From: an uncultured Chlorobiaceae bacterium
GTDB lineage: Bacteria > Bacteroidota > Chlorobiia > Chlorobiales > Chlorobiaceae
Assembly: GCA_903928225.1 (NCBI GenBank)
Contig: CAIYPU010000130.1
Span: 1,536-65,535 of the forward strand
Reading direction: 5' to 3'
Length of the DNA: 64,000 bases
Shown: piece by piece, positions 18,447 through 62,892 of the stretch
Position numbering within the stretch: the stretch's first letter is position 1
How the letters are laid out: the number at the start of each line of letters is the position of its first letter
Notes under the pieces: model-generated
Seen by the model: only the letters and a program-made list of their open reading frames with translations
Told to the model about the DNA's origin: nothing
The model's database searches: none
Position numbers and translations under genes: made by a program

Positions 18447-18520
<74 letters not shown>

Positions 18521-18875: not shown

Positions 18876-20720
18876 ATGACAAAAACAAGATTCGAACTGG
18901 ACATGCTGAACGTCAAGCACCTGATCACCTTTTCCGGGCCGAGCCCTTTTGCCATGGAACCCGTCGTGGTGGCAGCTATCGACCTGCCGGGCGAGTATCC
19001 TTATACTGGAGAAGGCCTCAGGCAGGGATGCAGACGGCTGCAAAAAGAGTTCCCCGATTGGATTTCAACCGAATTTACCCAGGATGTCCCGACTGGCGAA
19101 GAGATAGGGACAGTAATCGTACAATGGGCTCTCGGTGCCCTTAACGAAGTCAGGGGTTTCCTTCATGATTCCGGTTCGGTAACCACACCGGAGGGAGCCC
19201 TGATCTGGATCGGCTACCACCTTCCCTCGGTAAGCATCCAGGCCCTCGAACTGGGCTTGGATATCCTCAAACACGCCTGCCTGGATGAAGGATTTTGCCG
19301 CTCTGCGGCTGATGCGAGCCTTGCATCGTTCTGGCAGGTCTGCAGAGCGCACCATCCCGACTATCAGGCGCATATTCTCATGCAGGGTGCCCGGTCCAGG
19401 GTGATTCCCTTTATGCCTTTCATCCCGAATACAAGATACTGGCAGTTCGGCTGGGGATGCCGCTCTGAGATTTTCTTCGAATCATCGTCAAATGCTGACG
19501 GAGCGCTGGGGTTCCAATTCCAGCATTCAAAAATCCTTTCAAAGAATGTTTTCGAAAAACTTGGTTTTCCAACACCAGCTGCCCGGCTTGCCGGAAATAA
19601 AAGAGAACTTGAAGAAGCTGCAGAACAGGTGGGATGGCCCTGTGTTCTGAAACCGATATCCGGCGGGAAAGGAAAAGGAGTCACCGTAGGAATCCGGAAC
19701 ATGTCTGAACTGGAGAGGGCGTTCGATCATACAAAAGGGGTTACCGACAGGCCATTGCTGGTCGAAAGGTTTGTTCCCGGCTATGATCACCGGCTGACAA
19801 TCATCGGAGGAAAGTTGACGGCCGCCACCCGCCGCAATGCACCTTATGTAACAGGTGATGGAAAGAGTACAATACTTGAACTGATCGAGAACGTCAACAG
19901 AGAAAGAACGGATAACCTTGTCAAAAGCAGGTTTCTCTGTCCAGTGCCTGTAGATGAGACCCTTCTGCTGTACCTTTCACAGCAGGGATTGGAACTTGAT
20001 ACAATCCCCGCTTCAGAAATAAAGATAACCCTGAGGGCCAACGCCAACATCTCAACGGGTGGAACAGCTACCGATGTAAGCAGCCTGGTGCATCCCGATG
20101 TCAGAAAAATGGCTGAAACCATTGCAAAAACCATGGGGCTCTCAACAGCAGGTGTCGATTATATCACAGAGGATATCGGAAAACCCTGGTGCGAAGGCGG
20201 TGCGATCATCGAGATTAATTCCACTCCCGGCCTGGATGTCGCTCTATGCGGAGGAACAAATGTTATCGAACTTTCCTGCAGAGCCCTTGGTGACATTGTC
20301 GGACGGATACCGTTCCAATTGGTCATCGCAGGAGAGCCTGAAATCCGGGCCGCTGCTGAAAACCTCAAACAATATCGTTTCCGTGATGGAATTGGATGGA
20401 CTTGCTGCGGGTTCGAAACGCAAATCGGAAACATGCCTCTCTCCATTAGCGGTGATGGTACATGGCCCGGTATTCAATCATTGCTCATCAACCGGCTTGT
20501 GACTGAAGTCATCGCTGTCTGCACACCGGAGCAGATCATGAGGAACGGACTTCCTGTTGACCGGGTCGAACGCACCTGCATTTGCGGGGACTTGCCGTTG
20601 ATCGATGAATGGGTGGTTGTGCTCGAAGAGTGCAGTGGGTCCGTAGTCAAATTTTCCTCCTGGGACGAATGCTTCCGAATCCTGAGAACACATGCATCAG
20701 CAGATCGTAACCCAGAGTGA
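18876..20720 (+). CDS. Cyanophycin-synthetase-like ATP-grasp ligase: N domain and G (ATP-grasp) domain only, no Mur-ligase M domain, novel Cys-rich C-terminal tail
   Basis: 614-aa ORF. WPCVLKPISGGKGKGVTV, ERFVPGYDHRLTIIGGKL, APYVTGDGKSTILELIENVNRER, LRANANISTGGTATDV..HPD and GAIIEINSTPGLD line up with the CphA N+G region (VLKP..G.HGRG, GKDHRVLVV, GDGKSTI.ELIE..N, ANLSTGG.A.D, EVNAAPG) as I remember it. The last ~150 aa contain 7 Cys and no Mur-ligase GxxGKT motif. Confidence 0.75.
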   Translation: MTKTRFELDMLNVKHLITFSGPSPFAMEPVVVAAIDLPGEYPYTGEGLRQGCRRLQKEFPDWISTEFTQDVPTGEEIGTVIVQWALGALNEVRGFLHDSGSVTTPEGALIWIGYHLPSVSIQALELGLDILKHACLDEGFCRSAADASLASFWQVCRAHHPDYQAHILMQGARSRVIPFMPFIPNTRYWQFGWGCRSEIFFESSSNADGALGFQFQHSKILSKNVFEKLGFPTPAARLAGNKRELEEAAEQVGWPCVLKPISGGKGKGVTVGIRNMSELERAFDHTKGVTDRPLLVERFVPGYDHRLTIIGGKLTAATRRNAPYVTGDGKSTILELIENVNRERTDNLVKSRFLCPVPVDETLLLYLSQQGLELDTIPASEIKITLRANANISTGGTATDVSSLVHPDVRKMAETIAKTMGLSTAGVDYITEDIGKPWCEGGAIIEINSTPGLDVALCGGTNVIELSCRALGDIVGRIPFQLVIAGEPEIRAAAENLKQYRFRDGIGWTCCGFETQIGNMPLSISGDGTWPGIQSLLINRLVTEVIAVCTPEQIMRNGLPVDRVERTCICGDLPLIDEWVVVLEECSGSVVKFSSWDECFRILRTHASADRNPE

Positions 20721-20872
20721 AAACTGCGATCCGGCATGCGGTGATTCCTGTTTCAGATGATAATGTTCTTCGACGGAGGCTGGGCAAGGAATAAAATCCT
20801 GCCAAGACAGGTCCGGACAAAACGCAAAAAATACTTAAAGCACCCTTGGAACTCCCTGTAAAATCCTCGCCG

Positions 20873-21700
20873 ATGCATCCGCTTGCCGATACGTCGGCCC
20901 TCGTCCTGCTCTGGTGCGGACATGAAATCTACCGGACCGGAGCGGTTGAACAGTATTGCAGGAAACTCGACCTGAAAAACGGCATAGAACTGCTAAGACG
21001 CTGTAACGCCATCTGGCCTGAATACGGAAATGTCATCAGGTATCGAAAAACCTGTATCGCAGAAACTGCGGCCTCGTTGCTGATGAGCGGAACGATCCGG
21101 CAGGTCGTCATACCCGCAGCAGGCTTCTCCATGCTCGGGATCGAGCTCGCCGCCATGTTTTCCGGTTTACAGGTATTCGAACTTGACAGGGACGGCATGC
21201 CGGTAAAGCAGGAAATTACCAGGGACCTGCGCTATGCTGCTGACAGCAGCCTGCACTGCATCGCTGCCGATATCTGCGACTGTGGTCAGGTTGAACGCCT
21301 GCTCATGGATGCAGGCTGGAAAAGAAACGAACCCACGCTGCTCGTCATCGAAGGAATATCCTATTACCTGCATAAAAGGACTTCAAGAACACTATGGGAA
21401 ATGGTTGACACAGGATCGCCGGTCATCTTCGAATACCTCGTACCTCTTTCGTCAGTAGATGCCGGAAGGAGGCATATTCCCGAAGCTGTCTTTACGGAAA
21501 TCATGACCTACTGTTCAAGCCCCACAAGGGTAACCTGCTGGAGTGAGGATGAACTCAAACTCGAACGGTCAGTATCCGTTGACCGCTGTTATTCGCTCTC
21601 TGAAATCGAAAATAACACCCGAAATATCGATGAACCGCTTTTTCCGGAAAGAAAGGATGGATGGATCGAAGTCGCTATGATGTACCGGAACAGCAGATAA
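20873..21700 (+). CDS. SAM-dependent carboxyl O-methyltransferase, LCM/TcmP-type (Pfam LCM-like)
   Basis: The ORF runs 20846..21700 (TTG) and the first ATG is at 20873. VVIPAAGFSMLGIELA...QVFELDRDGMPVKQEI...IAADICD...PTLLVIEGISYYL follows the LCM-family pattern (V..LGAGLDTR...FEvD.P.v...K....D....PTl.i.EGvl.YL). Confidence 0.75.
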   Translation: MHPLADTSALVLLWCGHEIYRTGAVEQYCRKLDLKNGIELLRRCNAIWPEYGNVIRYRKTCIAETAASLLMSGTIRQVVIPAAGFSMLGIELAAMFSGLQVFELDRDGMPVKQEITRDLRYAADSSLHCIAADICDCGQVERLLMDAGWKRNEPTLLVIEGISYYLHKRTSRTLWEMVDTGSPVIFEYLVPLSSVDAGRRHIPEAVFTEIMTYCSSPTRVTCWSEDELKLERSVSVDRCYSLSEIENNTRNIDEPLFPERKDGWIEVAMMYRNSR

Positions 21701-21876: not shown

Positions 21877-22380
21877 ATGAAAACGAATCCAGATACTCAT
21901 AAAAAAAATGTCCATGACCTCGAAAAAGAAGTTGCCGATCTCAAGGCAAGGATCACCTTCAAGGACATGGAACTTACCAGGATATCCACTGCGGTTGCTG
22001 AGAAGACAAGCAAACTGAAAAAACTCCTTGATCAGATAGAAAGCCTCGAACTTGACCAGGCGACAAAAAAAAGCATGAAGGAGTCATGCCTCACGCTCAT
22101 AGACAGCCACACCATCGGTAAAATGATCAATGCGGAGCTGACCGAAGCGGATTCCGTATTCCTTTCCCGGCTACAGAAAAAACACCCGAAGCTCAACCAG
22201 CGCGAAATGAGGGTACTCCACCTCGTTAAGCTCAACCACGACACGAGGGAAATCGCCCATACCATAGGCATCTCGACACGAGGGCTGGAAAGTATCCGTT
22301 ACCGCCTGCACAAGAAACTGGGCCTCGGCAAGCACCAGTCGATCAAAACCTACCTTTCCGATTTCGCTGTCAGCGAATAA
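21877..22380 (+). CDS. LuxR-type HTH transcriptional regulator with N-terminal coiled coil (no receiver domain)
   Basis: 167-aa ORF. The C-terminal LNQREMRVLHLVKLNHDTREIAHTIGISTRGLESIRYRLHKKLGL is a LuxR/GerE HTH. Confidence 0.8.
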   Translation: MKTNPDTHKKNVHDLEKEVADLKARITFKDMELTRISTAVAEKTSKLKKLLDQIESLELDQATKKSMKESCLTLIDSHTIGKMINAELTEADSVFLSRLQKKHPKLNQREMRVLHLVKLNHDTREIAHTIGISTRGLESIRYRLHKKLGLGKHQSIKTYLSDFAVSE

Positions 22381-57955: not shown

Positions 57956-60109
57956 TCAGGAATACGGGCAATCTTCGACCACAGTGCCGAGTTTAAACAG
58001 TTTCCGCTCCCGAAACTCGCTCTGTTTTCCTCCATTCCATTGCATGACGGGTCTCAGGTACCCGACAATCCTCGAATAGACCGTGCAGGGCTGTTCCTTA
58101 CCGCTCCGCAGACAGGATGGACAATGATGATGCTCTCCGAACAGATAACCATGGGAAGGGCAGATGCTGAATGTCGGGGAGAGGGTAAAATAAGGCAGGG
58201 TGAAGTTGTTCATTACCAGGCGAACCAGTTTCTTGACGGCCTCGGCAGGCAATTCTTTTTCACCGACAAATGCATGAAAAACCGTACCGCCTGTATAGCG
58301 TGACTGCAGTTCGTCCTGAAGCCTGAGGGCTTCGAACAGGTCATCGGTATAACCGACGGGCAGCTGGGTCGAATTGGTATAATACGGTTCGGCACCGTCG
58401 AGCACAGCATCCTCATTCGCTGCAATAAGATCGGGGTAAAGAGATTTATCGGTTCTGGCCAGGCGGTAAGCAGTGCTTTCGGCTGGAGTTGCCTCAAGGT
58501 TGTAAATATTGCCTGTTTCTTCCTGGAAAGATTCAAGACGGTTCCGAATGAAGTCCATGATTTCGAGGGCAAAAGCCTTACCGCGTGGCTCCGCTATCGT
58601 GCATCCCAGAAAGTTCAGGCAGCATTCGTTCATACCGGTGATGCCGATAGTTGAAAAATGGTTCTCCCAGAACAATCCGTTCTTGCAGCTTACATGGCGC
58701 AGATAAAAACGGGAATAGGGATAGAGCCCTTCCCCTGTGAGGCGCTCGATAACCTTGCGCTTGATTTCGAGGCTGCTTTTTGCAAGCTCCATGGCATGCC
58801 CGAGCCGCTCGAAAAGCTCTTCATCACTTTTCGATTCGTAACCTATGCGAGGAAGATTCAAGGTGACGACACCGACCGAGCCGGTAAGGGGATTGGAACC
58901 GAACAGGCCGCCCCCTTTTTTCTGAAGCTCCCGTTTATCGAGCCGTAGCCTGCAGCACATGCTCCTGACGTCGTCAGGGCTCATCGAGGAATTGACGAAA
59001 TTGGAAAAATAAGGAATCCCGTATCTGGCTGTCATTTTCCATATCCCTTCGAAATTCGGATTGTCCCAGTCGAAGTCTGGAGTAATATTGTAGGTTGGAA
59101 TGGGAAAAGAAAATACCGCACCGTTGGCATCACCATCAAGCATGACATCGGTAAACGCCCTGTTGAAAAGGTCCATTTCCACCTGAAAGTCACCGTACTG
59201 CTCTTCCATCGGTCGTCCTCCAATAATCACCGGTTTGTCCCTGAGCATGCCGGGCACTTTCAGATCAAGAGTGACATTGGTGAACGGGGTCTGGAAACCG
59301 ACCCTCGTAGGGACATTCATATTGAAAAAGAATTCCTGCATGCACTGTCGCACACCGGCGTAATCCAGCTGGTCATAACGTATGAAAGGAGCAAGCAGGG
59401 TATCGAAACTGGAAAAAGCCTGTGCTCCGGCAGCTTCCCCCTGCATGGTGTAAAAGAAATTCACGACCTGTCCGAGAGCTGAGCGCAGATGCTTCGCCGG
59501 CCTGCTTGAAGCATGCCCGGCAACGCCGGTGAACCCTGAAATGAGAAGATCCTCCAGATCCCAGCCCACGCAGTAGACGCTCAGAAAGCCGAGATCGTGG
59601 ATATGCATTACGCCGGATTTGTGCGCATCGCTTATTTCAGGTGGATAGATCCTGTTCAGCCAGTACTGGGCACTCACGAGGGTCGAAATGTGCTGATTGA
59701 GCCCCTGCAGGGAATAGGATGAATTTGCACTTTCCTTCACACGCCAGTCTTCAAGGTGAAGGTAGCTGTCCACCAGGTCGATGTTGCTGAACATCTCCCT
59801 GGCATCCCTGATGTTCCGATGCTGATGCCGGTAGAGGATGTAAGCTTTCACCGCAGCGAATTCCTGATGCAGGAACAGAACATTTTCGACCATATCCTGC
59901 ACCTCTTCCACCGTTGGAGGCTTATCACTGCCGCCCTGCCGGATCTTCGCCACCACAGCTGAGCTATACATTTCCGCCTTCTGCCTGTCGGGTTTTCCAA
60001 CCGCACGCAAAGCCCTGAAAACAGCATACGTTATGCGTTCATGATCGAACGGCTCACTCCGTCCGTCACGCTTGATGATCACCTGTGGAGTGGTGAACGA
60101 ATGTTTCAT
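57956..60109 (-). CDS. nrdD: Anaerobic (class III) ribonucleoside-triphosphate reductase
   Basis: 717-aa ORF with an N-terminal ATP-cone (VIKRDGRSEPFDHERI). The C-terminus has a zinc ribbon (CPSHG...CPSC) and a glycyl-radical motif (SRIVGYLRPV). Confidence 0.93.
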   Translation of the reverse strand: MKHSFTTPQVIIKRDGRSEPFDHERITYAVFRALRAVGKPDRQKAEMYSSAVVAKIRQGGSDKPPTVEEVQDMVENVLFLHQEFAAVKAYILYRHQHRNIRDAREMFSNIDLVDSYLHLEDWRVKESANSSYSLQGLNQHISTLVSAQYWLNRIYPPEISDAHKSGVMHIHDLGFLSVYCVGWDLEDLLISGFTGVAGHASSRPAKHLRSALGQVVNFFYTMQGEAAGAQAFSSFDTLLAPFIRYDQLDYAGVRQCMQEFFFNMNVPTRVGFQTPFTNVTLDLKVPGMLRDKPVIIGGRPMEEQYGDFQVEMDLFNRAFTDVMLDGDANGAVFSFPIPTYNITPDFDWDNPNFEGIWKMTARYGIPYFSNFVNSSMSPDDVRSMCCRLRLDKRELQKKGGGLFGSNPLTGSVGVVTLNLPRIGYESKSDEELFERLGHAMELAKSSLEIKRKVIERLTGEGLYPYSRFYLRHVSCKNGLFWENHFSTIGITGMNECCLNFLGCTIAEPRGKAFALEIMDFIRNRLESFQEETGNIYNLEATPAESTAYRLARTDKSLYPDLIAANEDAVLDGAEPYYTNSTQLPVGYTDDLFEALRLQDELQSRYTGGTVFHAFVGEKELPAEAVKKLVRLVMNNFTLPYFTLSPTFSICPSHGYLFGEHHHCPSCLRSGKEQPCTVYSRIVGYLRPVMQWNGGKQSEFRERKLFKLGTVVEDCPYS

Positions 60110-60334
60110 GATCCTTTTTTCTTTTTATTGGCAGAAACGATGGTATTTCATCATCATCATTGGACGACAGCTTCCAGCCAAAAGACCTTTGGCGACGGAA
60201 CTGCCTGGACAATTCTGATTGATGCTCTGTGCTTGTGCGGAAAAAAGAAGACAAGGGGCTGGAAAGAGCGGATTGAATGCGTCAGACCAAGTCACTTACC
60301 ATGCTTTGGACCGCGAAAGCATGTTACGGATTCA

Positions 60335-60480
60335 AGAAACAGGACAGGTCTCCTGGCTTGCCGGTCCTGCGGCACCTTCCCATTCCGCTTGAGGCGGAAC
60401 AGTGGTTGCAACGCTGCAGGATGATCGATCGGCTTTACAGTTGCGCGTCAGCTCACGATTTACACGTGATTCCCAATTAA
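60335..60480 (-). promoter_or_regulatory. Cobalamin (B12) riboswitch in the nrdDG leader
   Basis: Minus strand reads AATTGGGAATCACGTGTAAATCGTGAGCTGACGCGCAACTGTAAAG...CAACCACTG...AATGGGAAGG...CAAGCCAGGAGACCTGTCC. It tracks the conserved cores of the E. coli btuB leader (AATAGGGAATCCAGTGCGAATCTGGAGCTGACGCGCAGCGGTAAGG...CACTGCC...GGGAAG...AAGCCCGAAGACCTGCC), including the B12 box. Confidence 0.9.
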
Positions 60481-60583
60481 ACCCCGTCAGGGGTGTCGAG
60501 TTTCTTCAGTAAGAAAAAAACAGAGTGGAGGAAATCTATGAAAATAATCCGGAATACAAACAGTTTAAACGGGATGAACAGCA

Positions 60584-62076: not shown

Positions 62077-62892
62077 TCACATTCTCAGGTGCACCATGAA
62101 CATAATCCGATGCCTGTCGGCAATAAACGCAAGATACCGGTCTTTCAGGCCCAATCCCTTCGTCATTCCCCTGTAGACGGGATATTCTCCGACAACCTCA
62201 ATGCTTCCGTTCCACTTCACGATGTCCGATGCCTTTTCGAGACCCCACTTCAGGCATGATTGTTCACCGAGGCCGATGCTCCGGATAATTTTCCTGTTGG
62301 CCAGCTTTACCCCGAACGGGGAGGCTGCATCGAACACGAATTCGCTTTCAGGGAATGCCGCTGACAGGTTATTGAAAATCTCTCTGACCTCATTCTCCCC
62401 AAAATAGTAGAGTACTCCTGCAGCCATGAACAGCACATGCTCCGAAGGATGTATCCTCCTGAACCAGCTTTTATCGAGAAATGAAGCTGAAATAAATGTC
62501 CGACGGCCGATTTCGGGAATGAATTTCCTGCGCAGATCGATCACGTCGGGCAGGTCGAGGTCATACCAGAAAAGCCGTCCATTGTCAACCCTGTCGAAAG
62601 TGGTGTCGAGCCCGCATCCTATATTGACGATGGTCGCTTCGGGATATCGGGAAACGAACTCCCTGATGGTCCTGTCGATATGGATGCTCCTCGCTATCCA
62701 CTCAAGCTGCGATATGTACTTTATCTTCGCCGCGATTTTCGAAAAATCGTAATCGATCTTCGTAATGATTTCACAGGCTTTCCTGTCGACAATCCTCGGA
62801 TGTTTTTTAAGGGTTTCACACGCACGGCCCCAGAGAGGAAGCAGCAGGGTGATCTGAACGCTTCCGAGCTCTATCGCATATTTGACAGACAT
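62077..62892 (-). CDS. SAM-dependent O-methyltransferase, LCM/TcmP (polyketide O-methyltransferase-like) family
   Basis: 271-aa ORF with IVNIGCGLDTTFDRV...WYDLDLPDVIDLRRK...VLFMAAGVLYYF, the LCM-family pattern. It is a second member in this window (see 20873..21700). Confidence 0.8.
   Translation of the reverse strand: MSVKYAIELGSVQITLLLPLWGRACETLKKHPRIVDRKACEIITKIDYDFSKIAAKIKYISQLEWIARSIHIDRTIREFVSRYPEATIVNIGCGLDTTFDRVDNGRLFWYDLDLPDVIDLRRKFIPEIGRRTFISASFLDKSWFRRIHPSEHVLFMAAGVLYYFGENEVREIFNNLSAAFPESEFVFDAASPFGVKLANRKIIRSIGLGEQSCLKWGLEKASDIVKWNGSIEVVGEYPVYRGMTKGLGLKDRYLAFIADRHRIMFMVHLRM

Follow-up and report, generated by a model that had tools for sequence, protein, structure and literature searches.

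A cyanophycin-synthetase-like ligase with a predicted vestigial M domain in an uncultured Chlorobiaceae bacterium, and its neighbouring methyltransferase

Introduction

What does a ligase that resembles cyanophycin synthetase (CphA) make when it ends soon after its ATP-grasp domain, and does the methyltransferase gene behind it belong to the same system? These questions are raised by a 64,000-nucleotide (nt) stretch of DNA from an uncultured Chlorobiaceae bacterium (assembly GCA_903928225.1, contig CAIYPU010000130.1, positions 1,536 to 65,535 of the forward strand), which is called the window below and is meant at its full length. An earlier interpretation made from the letters and translations (the sequence-only reading) had described a ligase in which a Cys-rich tail of no assignable family took the place of the M domain, located among accessory genes and paired with a carboxyl methyltransferase in a system of novel architecture. 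Our analysis bore out the open reading frames (ORFs), the domains, the Cys count and the tRNA gene of that description, as well as its interpretation of the protein as a CphA-type ligase without an Arg-adding site; the unassignable tail, the Cys-rich character, the accessory setting, the novel architecture and the dedicated pair did not stand. The explanation that we prefer, at a probability of roughly 0.7, is that the ligase would be an intact member of a distinct clade built like CphA2 and that the methyltransferase would be an unlinked neighbour. Of the polymerase superfamily to which CphA belongs, only CphA1 and CphA2 have been characterised to our knowledge.

The CphA-like clade that contains the window ligase is labelled FAM, ligase loci carry L-numbers and proteins or clusters carry P-numbers. 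Residue conservation was scored over an alignment of 32 FAM members.

Results and Discussion

The ligase and its family

The ligase and its domains are located as follows.

18876..20720, + strand: ligase ORF, 614 amino acids (aa) as the maximal ORF and 605 aa from the probable start ATG 18903 (M10)
18903..19352, + strand: N domain (residues ~10-159), CphA-type fold
19353..20240, + strand: ATP-grasp G domain (residues 160-455)
20241..20717, + strand: vestigial M domain (residues 456-614), the former "Cys-rich tail"

Translation likely starts at ATG 18903, giving a protein of 605 aa, because the closest homologue (P0001) and most other homologues begin at M10 and residues 1-8 were disordered in the structural model. 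Residues 12-453 of the ligase aligned with positions 2-449 of the 871 positions of the NCBIfam cyanophycin-synthetase models (E 1.3e-84), in agreement with the proposed match to the N and ATP-grasp G domains of CphA, and the sequence blocks quoted in its favour (GDGKSTILELIENVN, ANISTGGTATDVSSLVHP and EINSTPG) lined up with TeCphA1. As the sequence-only reading had expected, the Pfam scan of the ligase matched ATP-grasp families only, with no match to Mur_ligase_M or Mur_ligase_C; in a CphA1-like neighbour that served as control, both were detected. The ligase scored 253.5 bits against TIGR02068 (curated cutoff 850) and 285 bits against NF010623 (curated cutoff 877), compared with 986 and 1265 bits, respectively, for the true CphA1 P0118.

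Among 5.8 billion proteins searched, those of ~590-620 aa that were 33-92% identical to the ligase with ~95% query coverage made up more than 110 clusters (90% identity), and the true CphA1 proteins (856-879 aa) in the same search were only ~32% identical with 72% coverage. The profile of the tail alone matched 602 clusters (50% identity) at E<=1e-3 and 239 at E<=1e-10 among 1.84 billion representatives; full-length matches almost always measured 570-640 aa, and their tail occupied residues ~445-600. Because the protein is shorter than CphA1 and misses the curated cutoffs by a wide margin, it might be read as a decaying cphA1 remnant. However, the same length and tail recur in hundreds of clusters from several phyla, the ATP-grasp catalytic residues are invariant and the whole chain was modelled confidently as a single chain by AlphaFold2 (AF2; predicted local distance difference test score (pLDDT) 92, predicted template modelling score 0.90), so that the pseudogene explanation is refuted and the view that the gene is not a local pseudogene is upheld. 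The ligase appears to be an intact member of a real, conserved and uncharacterised family within the cyanophycin-synthetase superfamily.

Homology of the C-terminal tail to the CphA M domain

The ligase ended ~150 aa past the G domain. The FAM profile matched the structures of CphA1 (E ~1e-90) and CphA2 (8FXH, E 4e-84, profile positions 6-560; 7TA5, E 1e-81, profile positions 4-570), and its alignments to CphA structures ran past the G domain into the M domain. Residues 168-562 of the ligase were aligned to TeCphA1 by phmmer, with GRIPfqlviaGEpe opposite GRIPILSVTGTNGKT and AVCTPEQIMRNGL opposite AVLETARGGILRSGL. When the tail was compared with the CphA1 M domain by hhalign, the probability was 88% (E 3e-6, 98 columns); the control comparison of two known homologues, the M domains of CphA2 and CphA1, gave 74% (E 3e-5). 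The AF2 model of the ligase superposed on GcCphA2 (7TA5) over 608 columns with template modelling scores of 0.76/0.80. The first 13 PDB matches to a model of the tail alone (pLDDT 88.6) were all CphA1 or CphA2 (E 1.6e-4 to 2.6e-2) and were followed by MurE. The tail corresponds to the first ~100 residues of the Mur-ligase-type Mcore of CphA, after which it has an additional strand-helix-strand-helix segment.

The residues that the M domain would need for catalysis were missing. The P-loop position of the ligase tail reads AGEPE instead of GTNGKT, the P-loop pattern G[TS]xGK[TS] was found in none of the 32 FAM tails and the Mg-binding Glu of Mcore aligned with a Val. Taken together, sequence and model describe the tail as a truncated, degenerate Mur-ligase-type M domain that is predicted to be catalytically dead. 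Its homology surfaces only with profile-profile and structural methods. When the tail-only profile was searched against PDB sequences, chance matches alone were obtained (best E 0.4, a RuvB-like protein), and the tail was hard for the sequence-only reading to place because such a profile-versus-sequence search finds nothing. The claim that the tail could be assigned to no family therefore gives way to the hhalign match to the CphA1 M domain and to the fold search that returned CphA1 and CphA2. The upheld part of that interpretation is an enzyme of N and G domains without a working Arg-adding site.

The tail is nevertheless kept as a domain, with L471, G558 and P560 invariant and a FAM consensus of GRIPv.L.V...GW.CG...PW..V.ALLRNR...VC....I.R.GLPVDR. 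The count of seven Cys was correct (residues 510, 511, 549, 568, 570, 586 and 599), but "Cys-rich" does not describe a feature of the tail: only C549 (26/32) and C511 (21/32) were moderately conserved, C570 was found in 13 and C586 in 8 of the 32 members, and the other three in 2-3. A metal-binding Cys cluster was considered and rejected, as the Cys are not conserved.

Active site of the G domain and changes in substrate-facing residues

Functional residues were taken from TeCphA1 (PMC9427784) and StCphA2 (PMC10273328). The catalytic positions of the G domain (K219, K259, E297, R306, R320, D428, E446 and N448) were invariant in FAM, and the residues of the large loop and Asp site were kept in nearly all members (D360 and R387, 31/32 each; N391, 29/32; S393, 30/32). 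The latter four correspond to D362, R389, N393 and S395 of StCphA2, which are required for activity. By these residues the G domain is catalytically complete and predicted to be active. The Cx19HxxEH peptidase motif of the CphA1 N domain, as defined in PMC9262961, was not present in the ligase N domain; at the equivalent helix a W84..L89-N90-x-x-R93-G94 sequence (W..LNExRG) was kept across FAM.

Two substrate-facing features are changed in FAM. R458 of TeCphA1 binds the alpha-carboxylate of the substrate Asp (PMC9427784). Its position is occupied by D454 in the window ligase and by D in 23 of the 32 FAM members (E in 2, N in 1, G in 2 and R in 2), by R in 8/8 sequences of CphA1 and CphA1-like neighbours and by F, L or S in CphA2. 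The primer crevice of CphA, (L/Y)GP(S/T), is replaced by an invariant H160-P-D-Y-Q-A165 in FAM. Further residues specific to the FAM G domain are W189, E202, S205, D208 and Y429. The residues with which StCphA2 contacts cyanophycin (P162/T163, H208 and D212) aligned with P161-D-Y163-Q164, A210 and Q214 and were not kept. Position 214 is variable within FAM, and the D212 position is a weak discriminator because D or E there also varies in proteobacterial CphA1. At the position of TeCphA1 H267 the window ligase has a Lys, like CphA2.

Relation to CphA1 and CphA2

CphA2 is a protein of ~630 aa that consists of an N domain, a G domain and a truncated, inactive M domain, with solved structures 7TA5 and 8FXH (PMC10273328), and the statement that no characterised system has the architecture of the window ligase was thus incorrect. 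Like CphA2 (GcCphA2, 7TA5; StCphA2, 8FXH/8FXI), the members of FAM have N and G domains and an M domain of ~150 aa that is truncated and apparently inactive, within a total length of ~600-640 aa; they share with it a single predicted active site, the absence of HxxEH from the N domain, the large-loop residues and the loss of CphA1 R458. They differ from CphA2 in the HPDYQA motif, in D454 where CphA2 has F, L or S, in the cyanophycin contacts T163, H208 and D212, which are not kept, and in their occurrence, which is in Chlorobiaceae and Proteobacteria and not in cyanobacteria, usually with no cphA1 or cyanophycinase gene nearby. CphA2 has been described as cyanobacterial (PMC10273328, PMC10206079).

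The N and G domains are likewise homologous to those of CphA1 (TeCphA1, 7WAC; SuCphA1, 7LG5), with an identical catalytic set (K220, K261, R309, R323, D431 and E450 in CphA1), matched Asp-site residues N394 and S396 and a tail homologous to the start of Mcore. Unlike CphA1, FAM is without a functional M domain, having no P-loop, Mg-binding Glu, Mlid or C-terminal Mur domain; R458 is usually changed to Asp, Cx19HxxEH is missing and the window ligase, at 285 bits, stays below the 877-bit cutoff. After CphA itself, the ATP-grasp domains of N-acetylglutaminylglutamine synthetase (Ngg; TIGR03103, E 1e-44) and GshF (GshAB; PRK02471, E 9e-34) matched the G domain best; they have neither a CphA-type N domain nor an M remnant and are fused to other partners (GNAT, GshA). 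These two enzymes indicate that this ATP-grasp subgroup is also able to form single dipeptide bonds.

A neighbour-joining (NJ) tree was built from the G domains of 59 sequences, including cyanobacterial CphA2 (296 columns, 200 bootstraps). FAM was monophyletic in 200/200 bootstraps, as was CphA2, and the two formed separate clades. Mean G-domain identity of FAM was 35% to CphA1 and 31% to CphA2. We conclude from these comparisons that FAM is a distinct clade with CphA2-type architecture, a predicted active G domain and altered substrate-facing residues. A sizeable clade found in green sulfur bacteria and Proteobacteria thus appears to have the design of one active site and a vestigial M domain, mostly with no further cyanophycin genes nearby.

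Five partial proteins (P0144, P0164, P0167, P0173 and P0175) labelled Bacteroidia, Bacteroidales or candidate division CSSED were 50-62% identical to the GcCphA2 G domain, and three of these non-cyanobacterial labels (P0164, P0167 and P0175) grouped with CphA2 in 199/200 bootstraps. Mis-binning or a broader distribution of CphA2 could account for them. In the literature, the terms CphA-like and CphA3 led only to papers on Aeromonas beta-lactamases; one paper lists 2-5 annotated CphA homologues in coral-associated Prosthecochloris, with no analysis of them.

The downstream methyltransferase

The region behind the ligase contains the following features.

20721..20845, + strand: intergenic spacer with a weak terminator-like hairpin (20723-20742) and a promoter-like site (20770-20797), both consensus matches only
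20846..21700, + strand: S-adenosylmethionine-dependent methyltransferase of the LCM/TcmP family (PF04072), 284 aa, TTG start
21877..22380, + strand: 167-aa protein with a coiled coil and a LuxR/GerE-type helix-turn-helix (HTH), which follows the methyltransferase in all four loci that have it

The proposed LCM-type methyltransferase on the same strand was verified by its PF04072 match (E 8e-14, 52.4 bits, gathering cutoff 22.3). Among the LCM, TcmP and TIGR00027 carboxyl- or O-methyltransferases, the gene product passes PF04072 and falls short of TIGR00027 (49.5 bits, cutoff 93.55), and it had no match among PDB sequences. It is separated from the ligase by 125 nt if it begins at the TTG and by 152 nt if it begins at the following ATG (20873); the TTG has no obvious Shine-Dalgarno sequence ahead of it. 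Another LCM methyltransferase gene (PF04072) is found at 62077-62892 (- strand), 41 kb from the ligase; it is very divergent, with no significant pairwise similarity to the first.

The survey covered about 33 ligase loci: the window, 26 of the 28 that a scan of 185,579 species genomes had yielded, and 6 obtained through contig look-ups. The methyltransferase was present in four of them, all Chlorobiaceae: the window, L001, L029 and L030, whose ligases are 92%, 56% and 56% identical, respectively, to that of the window. It was absent from the Chlorobiaceae loci L002, L003 and L019 and from every proteobacterial locus surveyed. An opposite-strand gene lies between ligase and methyltransferase in L029 (564 aa) and L030 (171 aa), which makes co-transcription impossible there. 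Chlorobiaceae relatives of the methyltransferase (49-55% identity) were found in three contexts, adjoining ArsP/Mrp or aconitase genes, where the surrounding 8 kb contained no ligase. The upstream housekeeping order is common to the same genomes, so the adjacency of ligase and methyltransferase can be inherited gene order. We judged the methyltransferase to be a neighbour by lineage-specific synteny and not a dedicated partner. The sequence-only reading had named a degenerate Mur-ligase tail and a pair that does not recur across genomes as the outcomes that would speak against it, and both were found: the tail is such a domain, and the pair is confined to four of ~33 loci in one lineage, with relatives of the methyltransferase occurring apart from any ligase.

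Across the four loci, identities were 86-97% for the HTH protein, 56-92% for the ligase and 60-79% for the methyltransferase. Counterparts of the HTH protein are at L001:13003-13506, L029:10588-11094 and L030:3893-4396. The methyltransferase orthologue at L001:11971-12820 was called as 256 aa, and a different frame encodes its last ~28 residues, suggesting a frameshift at the 3' end or an error in assembly.

FAM genes in other genomes

A systematic search of 28 loci found no conserved neighbour of the ligase except paralogues, and most FAM loci had no cyanophycin gene nearby. In ~10 proteobacterial loci the FAM gene was located alongside CphA-like paralogues of two types. The first (NBR1, CphA1-like neighbours of ~885 aa) has Mur_ligase_M, Mur_ligase_C and a P-loop and yet scored only 614-638 bits against cutoffs of 850-877; the second (PAR2, 620-685 aa) is another truncated type that ends inside the M domain, with its profile match extending to about position 578. 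Both belong to the same superfamily and occur with FAM in L005, L006, L008, L012, L015, L017 and L032, but they fall in another clade with ~31-33% G-domain identity to FAM, are uncharacterised and are not found in the window. Two to four CphA-like ligases stand side by side at L005:7301-13614, L006:6267-11860, L017:5299-11809, L012:8507-20255, L008:7971-13584 and L032:7498-19016. These paralogue clusters also carry ABC/HlyD exporters, a P450, a FemAB-like protein, a TPR-sulfotransferase or glycosyltransferases and other glycan genes, and they look like uncharacterised multi-ligase biosynthetic clusters.

Rare gene fusions were detected as well. In two clusters (50% identity) FAM is fused to a C-terminal family-2 glycosyltransferase (P0457, 965 aa; P0106, 944 aa, L037:10001-12835), and in P0399 (1009 aa) it is fused to an N-terminal 4Fe-4S and FrhB/FdhB-like domain. 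In Methylophaga (L038:8739-13104) an MFS transporter, the ligase and a GT1 gene lie in a row. The fusions and the Methylophaga gene order hint that, in some lineages, the family has to do with glycosylated products.

Possible function of the ligase

The ligase is predicted to have a single active site because its M domain has lost the P-loop and the Mg-binding Glu. By homology with the G domains of CphA1 and CphA2, the carboxylate of an acceptor would be phosphorylated by ATP to an acyl-phosphate, which R306 would stabilise. The G-omega large loop (N391, S393 and R387, with R320) would hold an Asp-like substrate, whose amine would then attack the acyl-phosphate to form an amide bond, and this reaction might be iterative, as in CphA2. 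With no Arg-adding site, de novo synthesis of cyanophycin is excluded. The acceptor and the incoming unit probably differ from those of CphA1 and CphA2, because Asp454 replaces the Arg that binds the alpha-carboxylate and HPDYQA replaces the LGP(S/T) crevice, and the product is probably not canonical cyanophycin. The enzyme might polymerise a dipeptide as CphA2 does, extend another peptide or amidate a non-peptide carboxylate.

An enzyme with the N, G and vestigial M architecture and the size of CphA2 might simply do what CphA2 does, namely re-polymerise beta-Asp-Arg (or beta-Asp-Lys) dipeptides, imported or released by cyanophycinase, into cyanophycin at the G site. The match of D360, R387, N391 and S393 to their StCphA2 counterparts, the Lys at the H267 position and the loss of R458 are consistent with such a role, as are the CphA1-like genes that adjoin FAM in L005, L006, L007, L015 and L017 and the grouping of FAM with CphA2 in 51% of bootstraps. 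The separate clade argues against it, as does a G-domain identity that is lower to CphA2 than to CphA1; the T163, H208 and D212 contacts are not kept, the adjoining CphA1-like genes score far below the CphA1 cutoffs, CphA2 is described as cyanobacterial and most FAM loci stand apart from cyanophycin genes. In the window itself, tblastn detected no CphA1 M domain, and the scan of ORFs of at least 250 aa brought up no family of cyanophycinase type. We regard a functional CphA2 analogue as possible but not probable. The glycosyltransferase fusions P0457 and P0106, the FrhB/FdhB-like fusion P0399, the Methylophaga gene row, the L032 ligase located among glycosyltransferases, a UDP-glucose dehydrogenase and an epimerase, and the many loci with a solitary ligase gene and no primer-making partner would instead suit an amidoligase that does not polymerise and that adds one amino acid to a non-peptide carboxylate, such as a glycan uronic acid or a small glycosylated solute. 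Most loci, the window included, nonetheless have no glycan genes beside the ligase, the kept CphA-type N domain and the dimer-forming vestigial M domain suit an enzyme that handles polymers, and sugars are not known as substrates of any relative in the CphA clade; an enzyme of this kind is unlikely.

A dedicated system in which the ligase and the LCM methyltransferase make a carboxyl-methylated poly-amino acid or peptide draws on the placement of the two genes, which are on one strand and 125 nt apart in the window, with methyltransferase orthologues that follow the ligase at less than ~3 kb in L001, L029 and L030, and on the free carboxyls that a product of the poly-Asp type would present. 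The missing methyltransferase in three other Chlorobiaceae and in all proteobacterial loci, the opposite-strand genes that intervene in L029 and L030, the equal synteny of the upstream housekeeping genes, the methyltransferase relatives beside ArsP/Mrp or aconitase, the terminator-like and promoter-like sites in the spacer and the apparent 3' frameshift in L001 make such a system very unlikely. It is likewise very unlikely that FAM represents a third type of CphA-like polymerase that makes an undescribed poly-amino acid whose free carboxyls are esterified by the adjacent methyltransferase in the Chlorobiaceae lineage; that polymer could have an Asp-based backbone without Arg side chains or be built from another unit, and its role in green sulfur bacteria and aquatic Proteobacteria could be that of a store or a surface polymer.

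Several observations weigh against the preferred explanation of a distinct CphA2-built clade with an unlinked methyltransferase. The StCphA2 activity residues at the putative beta-Asp-Arg site are also kept in FAM, and the E215 and H267 positions of cyanobacterial CphA1 vary in proteobacterial CphA1, which weakens the differences in primer binding; these two positions were given no weight because of that variability. FAM adjoins a full-length CphA1-like gene in ~6 proteobacterial loci. The deep branching of the NJ tree was weakly resolved (FAM with CphA2 in 102/200 bootstraps; CphA1 with CphA2 against the rest in 76/200), and a CphA2-like function by way of a truncated ancestor common to FAM and CphA2 is possible. 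In four Chlorobiaceae genomes, with ligase identity down to 56%, no more than ~3 kb separates the methyltransferase from the ligase, and this proximity is compatible with a lineage-specific functional link.

A product that differs from cyanophycin is plausible for FAM. If the product were identified, it could add to the known range of amino-acid polymers made without ribosomes or reveal repeated loss of the M domain. The interest of the ligase is moderate and chiefly for specialists in cyanophycin and ATP-grasp enzymes, the claim of a ligase-methyltransferase system having failed, and the proteobacterial clusters in which three or four CphA-like paralogues lie together may be of greater importance than the solitary gene of the window.

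Genomic setting of the ligase

The tRNA gene ahead of the ligase was confirmed.

18447..18520, + strand: tRNA-Gly (GCC), 355 nt upstream of the ligase ORF

The sequence-only reading had located the ligase among accessory genes. The GC content around the ligase is equal to that of its flanks, the upstream order Rrf2, hydrolase, LptD and TrpB is common to other Chlorobiaceae, and the rest of the window encodes housekeeping functions, including TrpA, QueC, GroEL, UvrA, LptD, TrpB, isocitrate dehydrogenase, FabI, UvrD, Dxs, MutS2, PdxJ, PurH and NrdD. The window is ordinary chromosome with housekeeping genes outside the ligase region, which does not agree with an accessory setting, and the idea of a recently acquired island was dismissed in view of GC content and common synteny.

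The region after TrpB and tRNA-Gly varies in relatives, with unrelated genes inserted at L003:8190-9473, L029:7665-9359 and L030:2048-2563, and in L031 (4142-7570) a phage-type integrase directly follows the ligase. This pattern suggests that the stretch around the ligase is an insertion hot spot. At the far end of the window, a cobalamin riboswitch (60326-60515, - strand, 90.6 bits) lies directly upstream of the NrdD ORF (57956-60109, - strand), an arrangement that would place a B12-independent anaerobic ribonucleotide reductase under the control of B12.

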